DNA of 64,000 nt from Parcubacteria group bacterium GW2011_GWA1_56_13 (GCA_001004905.1 LCRY01000002.1:269873-333872), one strand, 5' to 3'; counted from the first letter of the stretch, positions 4,549-10,140 are shown. A program made the numbers and translations. The notes: generated by a model not told the origin, from the letters alone.

Positions 4549-5112
4549 TCAGGTCTGCTTGCCGGCGACCTGGTCGAAGTGCCCGACGCGAACTTTTGCC
4601 GGACGAATGACAGTGGGGCCTATCCTCCATCCTTTTTCCAAGAGTGCCGTGATGGTGTTGTCTGCCTCCATCGAATCTACCGTGTCTTGTCCGAATGCCT
4701 CGTGAAGCGCAGGGTCGAACATTCCGCCAATGTGGCCCACCTCTTCAAGACCGAGCGCGGCGAAGGCACTCTCAAGCTGGCGCGCGATCGCGAGAAAGCC
4801 CTGTGATATCTCCCCATGCTCCTTGGCGCGCTCGAGGGCGTCAAAGGCCGGCAGAAGCGTCTCCACCGCCTTTATCTTCCCGGCGAGTTCCGCCGTTTTA
4901 ACGTCTCCTTCGAACCGCTTGAGCGCGTTTATGTAATCGGCTTTGGCCCTCTGCCATCCGTCCATGTATTCCTGCTTTTCTTTTCGGCACGCCCCAAGCT
5001 CCTCTCGAAGTTTTTTTACCTTCGCGGACGCTCCCTCGGGGGACTCGGGATCTTCGGACCCGCCAGAAGCTTCTGGGTCCTCGGCTATGATTTTTACTTC
5101 GTCCTCATCCAT
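4549..5112 (-). CDS. grpE: nucleotide exchange factor GrpE (start taken at the MDEDEV Met; the longest ORF would extend to 5223 and overlap the upstream regulator)
   Basis: Acidic N-terminus, coiled-coil, and a C-terminal GrpE domain (FDPALHEA...IRPAKVRVG). Sits in the grpE-dnaK-dnaJ operon. Confidence 0.85.
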   Translation of the reverse strand: MDEDEVKIIAEDPEASGGSEDPESPEGASAKVKKLREELGACRKEKQEYMDGWQRAKADYINALKRFEGDVKTAELAGKIKAVETLLPAFDALERAKEHGEISQGFLAIARQLESAFAALGLEEVGHIGGMFDPALHEAFGQDTVDSMEADNTITALLEKGWRIGPTVIRPAKVRVGHFDQVAGKQT

Positions 5113-6501: not shown

Positions 6502-6708
6502 TCAAAAAGAGTTTGCTGGGCGAATGAGCGTCGCATCCGGTTTTCCATTGATCTTGGTGCCGACGAGTGCCGACGGTACCGGCTCCCATTTCCCGGTCGT
6601 GGAGTCGTATACGTCGGTTTTCTTCAGCTCTTCCCCGGCGCGAAGACAGCGTCCAAAAACCGCTTCTTCCTGGTTCCGGGGATGCAAATGCAGAATGTTC
6701 ATTCCGTT
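6502..6708 (-). CDS. small hypothetical protein, paralog A (~68 aa)
   Basis: MNGMNILHLHPRNQEEAVFGRCLRAGEELKKTDVYDSTTGKWEP...IRPA, a paralog of ORF 7555..7746. Strong Shine-Dalgarno AGGGAGAG; conserved promoter. Confidence 0.55.
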   Translation of the reverse strand, partial: NGMNILHLHPRNQEEAVFGRCLRAGEELKKTDVYDSTTGKWEPVPSALVGTKINGKPDATLIRPANSF

Positions 6709-6750
6709 CATGCTCTCCCTTTCTTTCAAGGACTGGAACTGTCCAGGCGA

Positions 6751-6827: not shown

Positions 6828-7448
6828 TTAAAAGCCGAGCTTTTCGTTGACGAAGATAACGTGGACTCGCCTGTTCTGTTTCTCCTGATGCAGTATCACG
6901 GTCTTGCTGTGCGCCGTGTGAGAGCCGTATTTCTTCAGTATATTCACGTCTTCGAGCGGCAGGATGTACGTATCTATCCGTTCAAAAGCATCTGGTAAAT
7001 CCCGGACTATCTTCTGCGTGCCAACGACAAGTATGATGTTCGGCGAGGTATATACCACGTGCGGCAGCTGACTGCCGGTATTGGACGCGATGACGATTTC
7101 CCCGGCCTCGGTGATGGCGTGCGCACTGCCGAGGTAATAGTCCGAAATGACCGATAATTTGCGCAGTTCCTTTTGCCGTTCCGGGTCCTTTTCGACGAGA
7201 ACGGCCGCGTGGAGATTATTCCAGCCGTGCGTGCCGTTTTTCAAGTACTCGACAAAACCGATTTCCTCGAGAGTGCGCGAGGAGCCGTTCATGACCGACG
7301 CCCCCGCCGGAATGAGACGTGTAATACGCGCAAGCGCGTCGGCACTCGTCGGAGCTACCTCAGGCAGGAATCCCCGCCCGGCGAGCCCTTTCGTTACTTT
7401 TGCGAGGACCTCTATCGGTGCCAATACGTCAAATGTTCGTGTTTTCAT
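6828..7448 (-). CDS. LUD-domain protein (LutC / YkgG-like lactate-utilisation family)
   Basis: Domain-level similarity to DUF162/LUD; 206 aa. Confidence 0.6.
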   Translation of the reverse strand: MKTRTFDVLAPIEVLAKVTKGLAGRGFLPEVAPTSADALARITRLIPAGASVMNGSSRTLEEIGFVEYLKNGTHGWNNLHAAVLVEKDPERQKELRKLSVISDYYLGSAHAITEAGEIVIASNTGSQLPHVVYTSPNIILVVGTQKIVRDLPDAFERIDTYILPLEDVNILKKYGSHTAHSKTVILHQEKQNRRVHVIFVNEKLGF

Positions 7449-7502
7449 ATCCCTTCACTATGCCCTATCTAAAAACCGGGGCACCCTGTGGACAACTTTT
7501 GA

Positions 7503-7536
7503 GGGTAAAAAGAAGCCCCGCTGGAAGCGGGGCTTT
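7503..7536 (-). terminator. intrinsic terminator after paralog B
   Basis: Stem AAGCCCCGC / GCGGGGCTT followed by a T-run on the minus strand. Confidence 0.65.
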
Positions 7537-7554
7537 AGTTTTCCGAACTCTGTT

Positions 7555-7746
7555 CTACGCGGGACGAATGAATATCATCTCCGCGTTTTCCGGCACCGGG
7601 GTACCAACAGCTTTCCCGGATATCGACTGCCATCCGCTTATGGAGTCGTATACGTCGCCTGTCTTTCGTAGCTCTCCTGGCCCAAGGCGACGTCCTAGAA
7701 CGACGTCTTCGTCGAAACGTGGATGATGATACTTTCGTGCATCCAT
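7555..7746 (-). CDS. small hypothetical protein, paralog B (63 aa)
   Basis: MDARKYHHPRFDEDVVLGRRLGPGELRKTGDVYDSISGW...IFIRPA. Shine-Dalgarno AGGGAGAGGGAG. Confidence 0.55.
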   Translation of the reverse strand: MDARKYHHPRFDEDVVLGRRLGPGELRKTGDVYDSISGWQSISGKAVGTPVPENAEMIFIRPA

Positions 7747-7813: not shown

Positions 7814-8025
7814 ATACCACTTCTTACGCCGCTTGAAATGCGGTATGGTGAGAAAAGACAGATAAAGGAGTATGTCCGTGGAAAATACGCACATCGTCGA
7901 TGGACGAATGTTTATGGAGCAGGCGCGGGCCGAACGAGTAGTGAGCGCTCATCTTGCCTGCCTCCGTTGTGAGCAGGGGGTTTTGAGCAAGGACTACCCT
8001 TGCTCACGACGTTAGGGCCTGTGGA

Positions 8026-8658
8026 TTATAAGATGCCTCTCTTTTTCAGTTCCCGTTCTCGAATCCGTCTCTCAGCTCGGGTTTCTCCCAGATTATTTCT
8101 ATGAGCTTCAGGAATGAAATCGATTTCTCTCAAAGATGGTTGGCAGTAAGAAAATGTTGTTCGTCCATTGAAATTTGTGACAGCAAAGTCACCTGCCCCA
8201 ATAATATCCATACCAATCAGTACCTGTGTATGATCTTTCTCGTCAGCTCCATCGTCTGGGATTAAATCCGCTTCTGTGACACGGACTTGTCCGAACATAG
8301 ACCGACTCGGTAACCCGATATTTATAAGATACGTATTTGTCGAGGACTTTCCTTTGGCATGACGTACCTCTGCTACTCCCGAAGGTTTCAGTCCCAAATC
8401 TCGTACCACCCTTTGAGTGATTGCCGAATTAGTTGCTCCCGTATCCCAAATGGCCGTATATTCTCGAAGTTGATACCCTCCTCTTTCCACCTCCTCTAGC
8501 GTCGCTGCCTCTCCTATCTTCACTTTGTTTGTAAGCACACGCACACGACCTGAGATTTTTGTAGTGAAAGCAAGATGCTGTACCATAACCCGAACTGTTA
8601 ACGGAACAAGGCTCTTGAATGAAATGTTTGGGTGTAGGATTCTTCGCCAGGACGACAC
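8026..8658 (-). CDS. retropepsin-like (clan AA) aspartic protease; start uncertain
   Basis: IWDTGATNSAIT (DTGA active-site motif) and LIGMDIIGAGDF. Lies in a low-GC segment. Confidence 0.6.
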   Translation of the reverse strand: MSSWRRILHPNISFKSLVPLTVRVMVQHLAFTTKISGRVRVLTNKVKIGEAATLEEVERGGYQLREYTAIWDTGATNSAITQRVVRDLGLKPSGVAEVRHAKGKSSTNTYLINIGLPSRSMFGQVRVTEADLIPDDGADEKDHTQVLIGMDIIGAGDFAVTNFNGRTTFSYCQPSLREIDFIPEAHRNNLGETRAERRIRERELKKRGIL

Positions 8659-8846
8659 TCCTGAATAAGGAAAGTACCCAGATCAAATCTCTCCTTGGCT
8701 TCGGTATAAGCTTGGATTTCAGAATCATAATCACCCTTCACTTCCTCGTCCTTGATGACGAGAAATTTCCCTTCATATTTAGAAACCAACTCAGCTTGAT
8801 GTCTCTTAAAATATTCAAGTTCTTTCTGAAGATTTGGTACGTTCAT
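8598..8846 (-). CDS. small hypothetical protein of the kind often paired with retropepsin-like proteases (DUF5678-like; family name from memory)
   Basis: MNVPNLQKELEYFKRHQAELVSKYEGKFLVIKDEEVKGDYDSEIQAYTEAKERFDLGTFLIQ. Confidence 0.4.
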   Translation of the reverse strand: MNVPNLQKELEYFKRHQAELVSKYEGKFLVIKDEEVKGDYDSEIQAYTEAKERFDLGTFLIQECRPGEESYTQTFHSRALFR

Positions 8847-8872
8847 TTTTAGAGAATAGCACAATAGTTGTT

Positions 8873-8901
8873 AACGCTTCGACCACTGCGGGGCGTTGTG
8901 G
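8873..8901. repeat. imperfect direct repeat, copy A: duplicate of the rpsI 3' end; would encode ...APQWSKR*
   Basis: 23/29 identical to 9374..9402, with the same reading frame and peptide as the S9 C-terminus. Confidence 0.7.
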
Positions 8902-8906
8902 ACGAC

Positions 8907-9128
8907 TTACGCCGCAATTGAAAGTCCAGAGGAGATCTTTACTGGAATCCCATTACGCATGTTCTTCTGAAGTTGATTGCCTGCATCGAGAAGTTCAATA
9001 CCCAAAATATTTCCCTTCTTGTCGAGATCAACGATAAGTTGCTCTTTCATTTCCACGGTTCTAGCCACCTTGCCTTTGCGCAAAGTCATATAAATAGCAT
9101 CCGCCACCTTGTCGTAGTTGATGTTCAT
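8907..9128 (-). CDS. DUF2283 family small protein (antitoxin-like partner of DUF4258)
   Basis: MNINYDKVADAIYMTLRKGKVARTVEM...ILGIELLDAG. Confidence 0.65.
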   Translation of the reverse strand: MNINYDKVADAIYMTLRKGKVARTVEMKEQLIVDLDKKGNILGIELLDAGNQLQKNMRNGIPVKISSGLSIAA

Positions 9129-9364
9129 AGATAGTAAGCCGTGCTTATAATGTATTCATTACTTTTGTCTCGAAAACCGTCCTTCCAGTATACCACAACT
9201 ATTGTTTTTGAGCCGATTTTCTTACGAACTCTAGTTCTTCCTTCGAATACAGCTTCTTTTAAATCAGGGTCACGAATTGCCTTTTTTACATGTTCAATCT
9301 GGATATTTCGTTCCTGCATTCGAACTTGAAAGTGATTTGTAAGACGTAATTTCACTTTCGACAT
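9125..9364 (-). CDS. DUF4258 family protein (toxin-like); start at the MSKVKLRL Met
   Basis: MSKVKLRLTNHFQVRMQERNIQIEHVKKAI...; overlaps the DUF2283 gene by 4 nt. Confidence 0.6.
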   Translation of the reverse strand: MSKVKLRLTNHFQVRMQERNIQIEHVKKAIRDPDLKEAVFEGRTRVRKKIGSKTIVVVYWKDGFRDKSNEYIISTAYYL

Positions 9365-9371
9365 ACGAATT

Positions 9372-9767
9372 CTAACGTTTAGACCACTGTGGGGCCTTGC
9401 GAGCCTTTTTGAGACCGGGTTTCTTGCGCTCTTTGGCACGCGGGTCTCGCTTGAGGAAGTGCGCCGCCTTGAGCACTTTGCGGGTCTTCGGCTCCGCCTT
9501 TATTATGGCGCGGCTGATGGCGTGGCGCAGTGCGTCTGCCTGCGCGGCGACGCCGCCGCCCTCCACGTGCGCGACCACCGCGTAGTGTTGTGCGCTCTCC
9601 GCTGTGGCGAGCGCCTCTTCGGCGACCTTGGCTCGCTCGTCCGTCTTAAAATATTCTTTCGGGGTCTTGCCGTTCACCGTCACCGTACCTTTGTCCGCGG
9701 GCGTCATGCGAACCGTCGCGATGGCGGTCTTCCTGCGTCCGACTGCGGTAACAAATTGAGTTGCCAT
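9372..9767 (-). CDS. rpsI: 30S ribosomal protein S9
   Basis: Clear uS9 sequence ending ...KAPQWSKR. Confidence 0.97.
   Translation of the reverse strand: MATQFVTAVGRRKTAIATVRMTPADKGTVTVNGKTPKEYFKTDERAKVAEEALATAESAQHYAVVAHVEGGGVAAQADALRHAISRAIIKAEPKTRKVLKAAHFLKRDPRAKERKKPGLKKARKAPQWSKR
9374..9402. repeat. direct repeat, copy B (the functional 3' end of rpsI)
   Basis: See copy A at 8873..8901. Confidence 0.7.
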
Positions 9768-9768
9768 G

Positions 9769-10140
9769 TTATTCGTTGACGATGAGGTTCTTCATGCGGG
9801 GCGTGCGGAGTTTGTTGCGCGGGATCATCCCGTCCACCGTCTTCTTCACGACTGCCGCGATGCCCTTCTTGGCTATCATTTCTTCCATGCTCATGGAATA
9901 AAGACCGCCCGGATAGCCGGTGTAGCGGGTGTAGACCTTGCCTTTCGTGCGGCGGGCAGGCAGGTGCATCTTGCCCGCATTGTTCACGGTGACTTTGATA
10001 GGCAGCGCCTGATTCTTCGCGAAATGCACGGAACGCTTGCCGAGAAGCGCGTGCGCCGCCTCGCTCGCCACGCGCCCGAGCGTGCGGTCGGTCGCATCTA
10101 TCGTATAGGTGGTTGCTTGCGGTTTCGTGTTGGATGTCAT
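9769..10140 (-). CDS. rplM: 50S ribosomal protein L13
   Basis: uL13 sequence. Confidence 0.95.
   Translation of the reverse strand: MTSNTKPQATTYTIDATDRTLGRVASEAAHALLGKRSVHFAKNQALPIKVTVNNAGKMHLPARRTKGKVYTRYTGYPGGLYSMSMEEMIAKKGIAAVVKKTVDGMIPRNKLRTPRMKNLIVNE

Follow-up and report, generated by a model that had tools for sequence, protein, structure and literature searches.

Insertion with long target duplication has been described for restriction-modification (RM) gene complexes (Nobusato et al. 2000; Furuta, Abe and Kobayashi 2010, PMC2853133), a class recognized by its selfish killer-antidote genes, the lack of a mobility gene, long, variable and imperfect target repeats, and hosts that are mostly naturally competent (PMC2853133). 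Here we report a comparable arrangement behind rpsI, the gene of ribosomal protein S9, in a stretch of 64,000 nucleotides (hereafter the window) from Parcubacteria group bacterium GW2011_GWA1_56_13 (GCA_001004905.1, LCRY01000002.1:269873-333872), a host that its S9 relatives place in Candidatus Kaiserbacteria (Patescibacteria, or candidate phyla radiation, CPR). A predicted type II toxin-antitoxin (TA) cassette, made of a DUF4258 and a DUF2283 gene, lies between the functional 3' end of rpsI and a second copy of that end. On balance, and with modest confidence, we interpret the locus as a recombination-driven insertion with long target duplication of a putative addiction cassette behind rpsI, and not as the product of an integrase.

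The likeness to the RM insertions extends to several features: a gene pair of the post-segregational-killing type, an empty site in a relative, a lower GC content, the lack of a mobility gene, and variable, imperfect direct repeats of a single-copy target that can overlap the 3' end of the upstream gene. The differences lie in the cargo (here a type II TA pair), in the hosts (here Patescibacteria), in the recurrent re-use of one target, the rpsI 3' end, and of rplB too, and in the extra copy, which here keeps its coding capacity, the two copies being different alleles. The RM definition calls for repeats longer than 30 bp, so that the window, with 30 nt (24/30 identical), is a borderline case, whereas the repeats reach 57-105 nt in L008, L109 and L156 and 83 nt in L105 (L numbers are the labels of the related loci and contigs compared, more than 60 of which are linked to rpsI). 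As in the RM class, the duplication length is variable, ranging from 18 to 105 nt at rpsI and from 37 to 83 nt elsewhere.

The target itself recalls IMESag-rpsI and the streptococcal integrative and conjugative or mobilizable elements (ICE/IME), which also occupy the 3' end of rpsI, leave its frame intact and place a repeat at the far end (PMC5090054, PMC4701971); those elements, however, encode an integrase and have a fixed att core, whereas the present insert, a minimal cargo of 0.5 kb, lacks an integrase and has variable boundaries. As with integron cassettes, the units are small and promoterless, often TA pairs, stacked by a fixed site behind an upstream promoter with the newest nearest the site (two units stand in series in L008), but intI, attI and attC are lacking here and the separating repeats are copies of the end of a host gene. 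Finally, homology-facilitated illegitimate recombination during natural transformation, reportedly described by de Vries and Wackernagel in 2002, and the flank-mediated exchange of islands resemble the present case in that one side is anchored in a conserved gene, the opposite joint is non-homologous and breakpoints accumulate where the homology ends; we know of no case in which this mechanism yielded a regular stop-codon junction or systematic target duplications. General background to it is given in PMC6382021.

All genes of the region lie on the minus strand, in the order rpsD, rpoA, rplQ, rplM, rpsI, DUF4258, DUF2283, S9-end copy, DUF5678-like gene and retropepsin-like gene. The features that make up the insertion are as follows.

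9372-9767, minus strand: rpsI, ribosomal protein S9, 131 aa (Pfam PF00380, E=1.3e-39), last gene of the series rpsD-rpoA-rplQ-rplM-rpsI
9372-9401, minus strand: functional S9 3' end (upstream copy), CGC AAG GCC CCA CAG TGG TCT AAA CGT TAG, preceded in rpsI by ...GCT
9372-9374, minus strand: rpsI stop codon, TAG
9125-9364, minus strand: DUF4258 gene, putative toxin of the BECR/RelE-ParE superfamily, 79 aa (PF14076, 29.1 bits, cut-off 25)
8907-9128, minus strand: DUF2283 gene, putative antitoxin, 73 aa, ending ...SIAA* (PF10049, 53.6 bits), stop codon at 8907-8909
8901-8906, minus strand: junction GTCGTC, from the antitoxin stop to the S9-end remnant
8871-8900, minus strand: non-functional S9-end remnant, CAC AAC GCC CCG CAG TGG TCG AAG CGT TAA, that is HNAPQWSKR*

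In the type II TA profile test the DUF4258 protein passed the curated threshold, and this family is listed among the TA toxins of BECR fold, with an unknown target (PMC11980606). The two genes are small, co-oriented and conserved as a pair, and the toxin stop and antitoxin start share 4 nt (ATGA, 9125-9128), which is the layout of type II TA modules. As judged from sequence, the pair is a type II TA cassette, with DUF4258 as predicted toxin and DUF2283 as predicted antitoxin. The ATG of the toxin gene lies 7 nt past the rpsI stop, and the terminator scan found no terminator between them. The GC content falls to 0.38-0.47 over about 8000-9380, versus at least 0.6 in rpsI. A literature search found no published experiment on the DUF4258/DUF2283 pairing and nothing usable on DUF2283 or DUF5678, and PADLOC gave no match for the TA proteins. 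Nearly all DUF2283 antitoxins of this family, with those of the window (8907-8921), L010, L022, L088, L092, L093, L099, L109, L115 and L133 as the cases noted, end in ...AA*, ...VA* or ...LA* (SIAA, PVAA, PALA); these C-termini resemble ssrA-type degradation tags and may be degrons that make the antitoxin labile. At L109:280-370 the toxin gene has an internal deletion (MKLKFTYHSQFRLNQRSLNNEYFIITAYYL*) next to an intact antitoxin gene, and this cassette looks like a decaying TA module.

The two S9-end copies (9372-9401 and 8871-8900) are 501 nt apart, identical at 24 of 30 positions over ten codons, and both encode APQWSKR*; a repeat search aligned 8872-8898 with 9373-9399 at 85%. The original prediction, made from the sequence alone, had described an rpsI end duplicated at 23 of 29 nt in the same reading sense, with APQWSKR* kept and the copies bracketing exactly the DUF4258 and DUF2283 genes, and our recount, the coordinates and the Pfam assignments agree with it. 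It had also called the mismatches synonymous or conservative, which applies to four of the six (stop for stop counted as synonymous) and not to the two at the left edge (R to H and K to N), which are not conservative.

A repeat this short (30 nt) and imperfect could in principle be a chance similarity, or the arrangement an assembly chimera; both are extremely improbable. A degenerate 22-mer of the S9 end has only two matches in the 64 kb of the window, both at these sites, against 0.01 expected, and the peptide and stop are kept, so that the repeat is beyond chance, as had been argued. The remnant was also matched by an nhmmer profile of S9 ends (E=0.014). Moreover, seven independent assemblies, built from different samples and by different pipelines, agree at 100% over 2318 nt of the arrangement, which is therefore not an assembly artefact, and extra S9 ends recur in at least eight lineages (see below). 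A third S9-end copy past the retropepsin gene was rejected, the look-alike at about 7990-8015 being part of a hairpin to which the profile search gave no match. We also discarded the idea that ribosomes read through the antitoxin stop and so translate the remnant, since the remnant is in frame in just 3 of 5 junction types (by eye).

Compared across relatives, the sequences give rplM-rpsI-(LUD)-grpE-dnaK as the order predicted to be ancestral. In L009, L012, L013 and L031 there are 66-86 nt between rpsI and grpE, which hold a terminator and, before grpE, a conserved promoter-like box; in the nearest S9 relatives (L181-L185, 89%) rpsI is followed by 122-141 nt, the LUD gene, one more gene, grpE and dnaK. 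The empty site, which it had been suggested to look for in related genomes, is thus present in both groups, and the cassette of the window is an insertion. Relative to L181-L185 the window has about 1.8 kb extra between the rpsI stop and the promoter box of the LUD gene, with 7513-7746 as the right end of this extra block. Across genomes the rpsI-grpE interval as a whole differs both in cargo and in length (0.07 to more than 4 kb): it is a recombination hot spot in Kaiserbacteria.

Recurrence at rpsI was surveyed by a peptide scan and then with an nhmmer profile built on the final 66 nt of the gene. The DUF4258/DUF2283 pair sits between rpsI and grpE in many lineages and is kept as a pair in more than 50 loci; all three close homologues of the window toxin whose contexts were examined (73-89% identity) occupy the rpsI-grpE position or, on contigs that stop short of grpE, are compatible with it. 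Extra S9-end copies were found by the profile in the window, L008 (two), L023/L133, L088-91, L093-95, L097, L109 (two) and L156, and L104 and L102 were added by eye. These copies, of 18-105 nt and from at least eight related lineages, are confined to Kaiserbacteria rpsI loci that have either a TA pair or an imported rpsI 3' end plus untranslated region (UTR). Wherever a TA locus has an extra S9 end behind the antitoxin, the copy begins 0-6 nt past the antitoxin stop. In contrast to this constancy, the S9-side boundaries lie at -30/-33 (window, L093/94, L104), about -48 (L097), -57 (L109), -60 (L156) and -65 (L008), the left boundaries across relatives cover -18 to -65, some copies also hold 47 nt of 3' UTR, and the duplications measure 18, 30-33, 57, 60, 65 or 105 nt.

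The same cassette family is flanked by duplications of other targets. At L105:1-800 a TA pair of the family lies between rplB and rpsS in the S10 operon, and an 83-nt copy of the L2 C-terminal end begins 2 nt past the antitoxin stop; by our own count the two L2 ends differ by 12 synonymous and 2 nonsynonymous codons. At L106:2120-2770 an identical cassette with both L2-end fragments is preceded by an unrelated membrane-protein gene. A 47-nt terminator is duplicated around the TA cassette in L125, the end of another gene in L138 and a 37-nt site in L158-161. Overall, flanking target repeats accompany 10 of 63 distinct cassettes, compared with 3 of 127 position-shifted controls, and in nine of the ten the downstream copy lies no more than 14 nt from the antitoxin stop.

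These data bear on the main rival explanation, in which the locus would be a remnant or miniature of an integrase-driven element, similar to an IME or to a cis-mobilizable element (CIME), whose attP mimicked the S9 3' end and whose integrase has been lost or acts in trans. Integrases of the streptococcal ICE/IME are documented to target the rpsI 3' end (PMC5090054, PMC4701971), the topology fits (a regenerated gene end and direct repeats around a low-GC cargo), the cassette end is very regular, and in L008 and L023 the insertion point of inserts that carry no cargo is the same within 3-6 nt. We nevertheless hold this origin to be unlikely. Every open reading frame (ORF) between the repeats of the window is accounted for, and none is an integrase or a transposase; phmmer searches with XerD, Hin and the catalytic domain of lambda Int gave no match in the window or in any of the rpsI-linked loci, so that the statement of the original prediction that no integrase lies between the repeats stands. 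Repeat lengths and boundaries vary, the copies have no identical core (in L023 no identical run exceeds about 5 nt, by eye), cassettes of one family have duplications at unrelated targets, and the cargo-free insert of L008 and L023 is homologous to a native rpsI 3' UTR. An integrase-type site, as the original prediction implied, is disfavoured by copies that are 67-89% identical and lack an identical att core and by the other targets (the rplB end, a terminator, gene ends). Of its picture of a site-specific insertion into a gene's 3' end with reconstitution of the coding sequence, the insertion and the intact S9 C-terminus hold, and a single site-specific crossover does not, since the boundaries vary.

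Other mobile elements were considered and rejected. A transposon or miniature inverted-repeat transposable element (MITE) would not fit, as the duplication length is not fixed (18-105 nt) and no terminal inverted repeats were present at 8901-8910 and 9365-9372; nor was any attC-like hairpin found at the cassette ends, which, together with the lack of an intI/attI platform and of a recombinase, dismisses an integron cassette. At L111:970-3240, where rpsO (S15) and a NYN-domain gene lie upstream, one further TA pair of the family adjoins a XerD-like gene, and no flanking duplication was detected there; we did not retain this XerD-like match as a mobiliser, the locus being a non-rpsI one beside rpsO and the protein looking like a housekeeping Xer. 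A link to phages was rejected as well: L175 (IMGVR_UViG_3300012202_000004):4001-4237 is the only contig of the viral collection with a DUF2283 relative, at 49% identity, this one distant match being the sole viral TA match, and the hairpin search of the viral contigs was without a match.

We then turn to the relation between the two copies. Over seven independent copy pairs there are 39 codon differences, 35 of them synonymous and 4 nonsynonymous, where about 20% synonymous would be expected under neutrality (P ~1e-20); they include TCT/AGC switches of serine codons. A duplicate decaying neutrally in situ cannot account for this ratio, and each copy must have been a working S9 end for most of the time over which it diverged. 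The functional and the extra copies are, on this codon evidence, best described as different working alleles and not as a gene end and its decayed local duplicate. This weighs on another alternative, a local tandem duplication in which slippage or unequal crossing-over doubled the rpsI 3' end, UTR included or not, and the TA pair landed between the two copies later. Such an origin would suit L088, where rpsI is followed after 11 nt by a degenerate second S9 end with no gene between, and L109, where the UTR parts are nearly identical. We judge it quite improbable in view of the synonymous excess where neutral decay is expected, and also because the remnant, in all TA loci that have one, lies right at the antitoxin stop, moves with the cassette between rpsI alleles, and has counterparts at other genes.

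Evidence of exchange came from pairs of loci. Between L093 and L094 the identity is 100% from position -18 of rpsI, across the TA pair and the remnant, to more than 500 nt beyond, and only about 78% upstream of -18, a pattern that reads as a recent recombination with its breakpoint within the S9 C-terminal codons; the remnant thus travels with the cassette between different rpsI alleles. In L109 the 105 nt duplicated around the cassette comprise the last 57 nt of S9 and 47 nt of 3' UTR; the UTR copies differ at 2 of 47 positions and the coding parts at nine, all synonymous and all upstream of -19. The cassettes of the window and L093 are homologous from the toxin through the remnant, the homology ends exactly at the remnant stop codon, and the TAA-GTC junction is common to the window and L093/L094. 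Furthermore, TA identities are incongruent with those of S9 and L13: the window and L101 share 84% in S9 and 57% in the toxin, the window and L090 66% and 73%, and L010 and L100 73% and 80%, respectively. It follows that the cassette with its trailing S9 end has been exchanged between lineages and that rpsI has been replaced allelically up to the last conserved block.

In the window, the last 21 nt of the functional end (...CAG TGG TCT AAA CGT TAG) match L184/185 at 20 of 21 positions and L008 at 19 of 21, whereas the remnant (...CAG TGG TCG AAG CGT TAA) matches the nearest relatives at 16 of 21 and finds its best match, 20 of 21, in the functional end of the more distant L010. Because the functional end is typical of the clade, the remnant resembles L010 and the junction is shared with L093/94, the remnant is likely a passenger that came with the cassette from an earlier host, as far as these few sequences allow, and not the displaced original end. 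The overall interpretation of the original prediction accordingly keeps its rpsI 3'-end insertion, its intact S9 and its lack of an integrase, and loses the one site-specific crossover; the downstream copy as original end is probably wrong. An argument from third-position GC content, by which the functional end would be imported and the remnant resident, was dropped, as the ending TCT AAA CGT, with its low third-position GC, is typical of the whole clade.

Inserts without cargo occur behind rpsI at L008:5397-5540, at L023:5160-5302 (= L133:545-690) and, truncated, at L020:5388-5460. The order in L008 and L023/L133 is functional rpsI end, terminator, long stable hairpin and a 30-nt S9-end remnant, and the functional end of the cargo-free loci reads GCA AGG AAG GC...TGG TCT AAA CGK TAG. 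The hairpin, GAAATGGCAT...ATGCCATTTC with an inner GCGGCC..GCCGC stem, is imperfect, has a z of about -8 and shows compensatory changes between species. Between species, the insert of about 140 nt shows 87-92% identity, compared with only 72-75% for their rpsI genes. Homology to the native rpsI 3' end and UTR of L176 and L183 extends over its 5' part and the AGG AAG GC ending, for which reason a MITE-like mobile element was dropped; we read these events instead as the import of a foreign rpsI 3' end with its UTR, joined illegitimately within the resident S9 end. To go by these inserts, the recombination that makes remnants would also operate without a cassette. The native UTR of L176/L183 is without the long hairpin, which is possibly an RNA element or a recombination hot spot; an Rfam search of L008, L010, L022 and L023 found no family for the insert.

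The surroundings of the insertion comprise the following features.

9769-10140, minus strand: rplM
8598-8846, minus strand: DUF5678-like gene, 82 aa, partner of the protease gene (PF18929, 18.7 bits, under the cut-off of 23.2)
8026-8586, minus strand: retropepsin-like aspartyl protease gene, 186 aa (PF13650/PF13975, Asp_protease_2, 31.2 bits)
7555-7746, minus strand: 63-aa ORF, paralogue of 6502-6729 (ORF list)
7513-7535, minus strand: strong intrinsic terminator, the first on the minus strand after rpsI (terminator scan)
6828-7448, minus strand: LUD-domain gene, conserved right flank (PF02589)
4549-5112, minus strand: grpE, conserved far flank of the variable rpsI-grpE interval

The DUF5678-like and retropepsin genes (8026-8846) form a second low-GC unit of two genes, outside the TA unit and absent in every relative examined. 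Pfam and GC content support the view, already put forward, of a low-GC block that adds a retropepsin-like protease and a small partner, the DUF5678 match of the partner being under the cut-off. The protease has a weak PADLOC match to the candidate defence component PDC-M08B (E=0.0015). Farther along the minus strand come the 63-aa ORF, the terminator, the LUD gene, two small ORFs, a regulator, grpE and dnaK. The small ORFs on either side of the LUD gene (7555-7746, 63 aa, and 6502-6729, 75 aa) are paralogues (phmmer E=8e-09), a relative of theirs adjoins rpsI in L176, and Pfam assigns them no family. Short conserved boxes precede the downstream genes: TTTCAGGCATA(A/G)T stands before grpE in many Kaiserbacteria (L009, L012, L013, L031, L010, L088) and AAAGTT(A/G)TCCACAGG before the LUD gene in the window, L181 and L183, the promoter-like box of the window at about 7480-7500 being AAAGTTGTCCACAGG. 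In all likelihood the boxes serve as promoters or operators, and the variable interval has its right edge at them.

How might the insertion have come about? In the recombination-driven insertion that we favour, DNA from related cells would enter, probably by natural transformation, and be integrated by the recombination system of the host. The conserved S9 3' end would serve as homology or microhomology, giving a Campbell-like or overlapping-arm outcome or a homology-facilitated illegitimate joining. Once made, the unit of TA pair and trailing S9 end would spread between lineages by ordinary homologous recombination, and later allelic replacement of rpsI, with breakpoints piled up at the last conserved block (about -18, CAGTGG), would leave copies that differ synonymously. 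Recombination between the repeats could delete the insertion, and the TA pair would guard against such loss. Transcription of the cassette would come by read-through from the ribosomal-protein operon, since there is no terminator between rpsI and 7513-7535. As to DNA uptake, com genes are conserved across the CPR, and natural transformation with homologous integration has been shown in Saccharibacteria (PMC10633639).

Several points weigh against this scenario. For RecA, a repeat of 30 nt at 80% identity is a poor substrate; the founding event therefore calls for an illegitimate step that the scenario leaves unexplained. A possible microhomology, of GCA TAA at the antitoxin end with GCC/GTC AAA in S9, fits the -33 and -60 junctions, not the others. 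The striking regularity with which the junction falls at the antitoxin stop (at least five junction types, 0-6 nt) may point to a defined end of the cassette, and so perhaps to an unknown enzyme. Many loci have rpsI-TA-grpE without any remnant (L010, L022, L092, L099-L101, L115), which is in part the arrangement without a repeat that the original prediction had named as speaking against it. No circle and no polymorphism of empty and occupied sites was seen, as 14 of 14 contigs of the species carry the insertion. The recombinase search consisted of three single-sequence queries and covered the host genome over 64 kb only.

A more specific and tentative proposal, possible in our eyes and no better than that, is that the DUF4258/DUF2283 cassettes of Patescibacteria are recombinase-free homing addiction modules, each with a coding-competent copy of the 3' end of an essential and highly conserved ribosomal protein gene (rpsI, rplB); after DNA uptake this copy would act as a homology arm by which the RecA of the host places the cassette behind that gene, whichever related genome it enters. 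One copy would then become the working gene end at each transfer, so that the arm would be under purifying selection, which would explain the 35:4 ratio, and the TA pair would block the loss of the module by repeat recombination. In a stronger version, the long target duplication would be made by an activity so far unrecognised, which might belong to the proteins of the cassette itself, and the regular antitoxin-stop junction would be its trace.

The arrangement behind rpsI fits a known but mechanistically poorly understood class of gene mobility, here with TA cargo and Patescibacteria hosts. Read as we favour, it would extend integrase-free insertion with long target duplication from RM systems to TA cassettes, and to the CPR, where gene gain is thought to rest on natural competence. 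In these genomes, recurrent insertion behind ribosomal protein genes marks their 3' ends as apparent landing pads. Copies of gene ends that look dead can stay coding-competent through exchange, which calls for caution in annotation and in inferring att sites from repeats. The mechanism could be dissected in the rpsI-grpE interval, a compact natural setting in which independent events are many and the units short.

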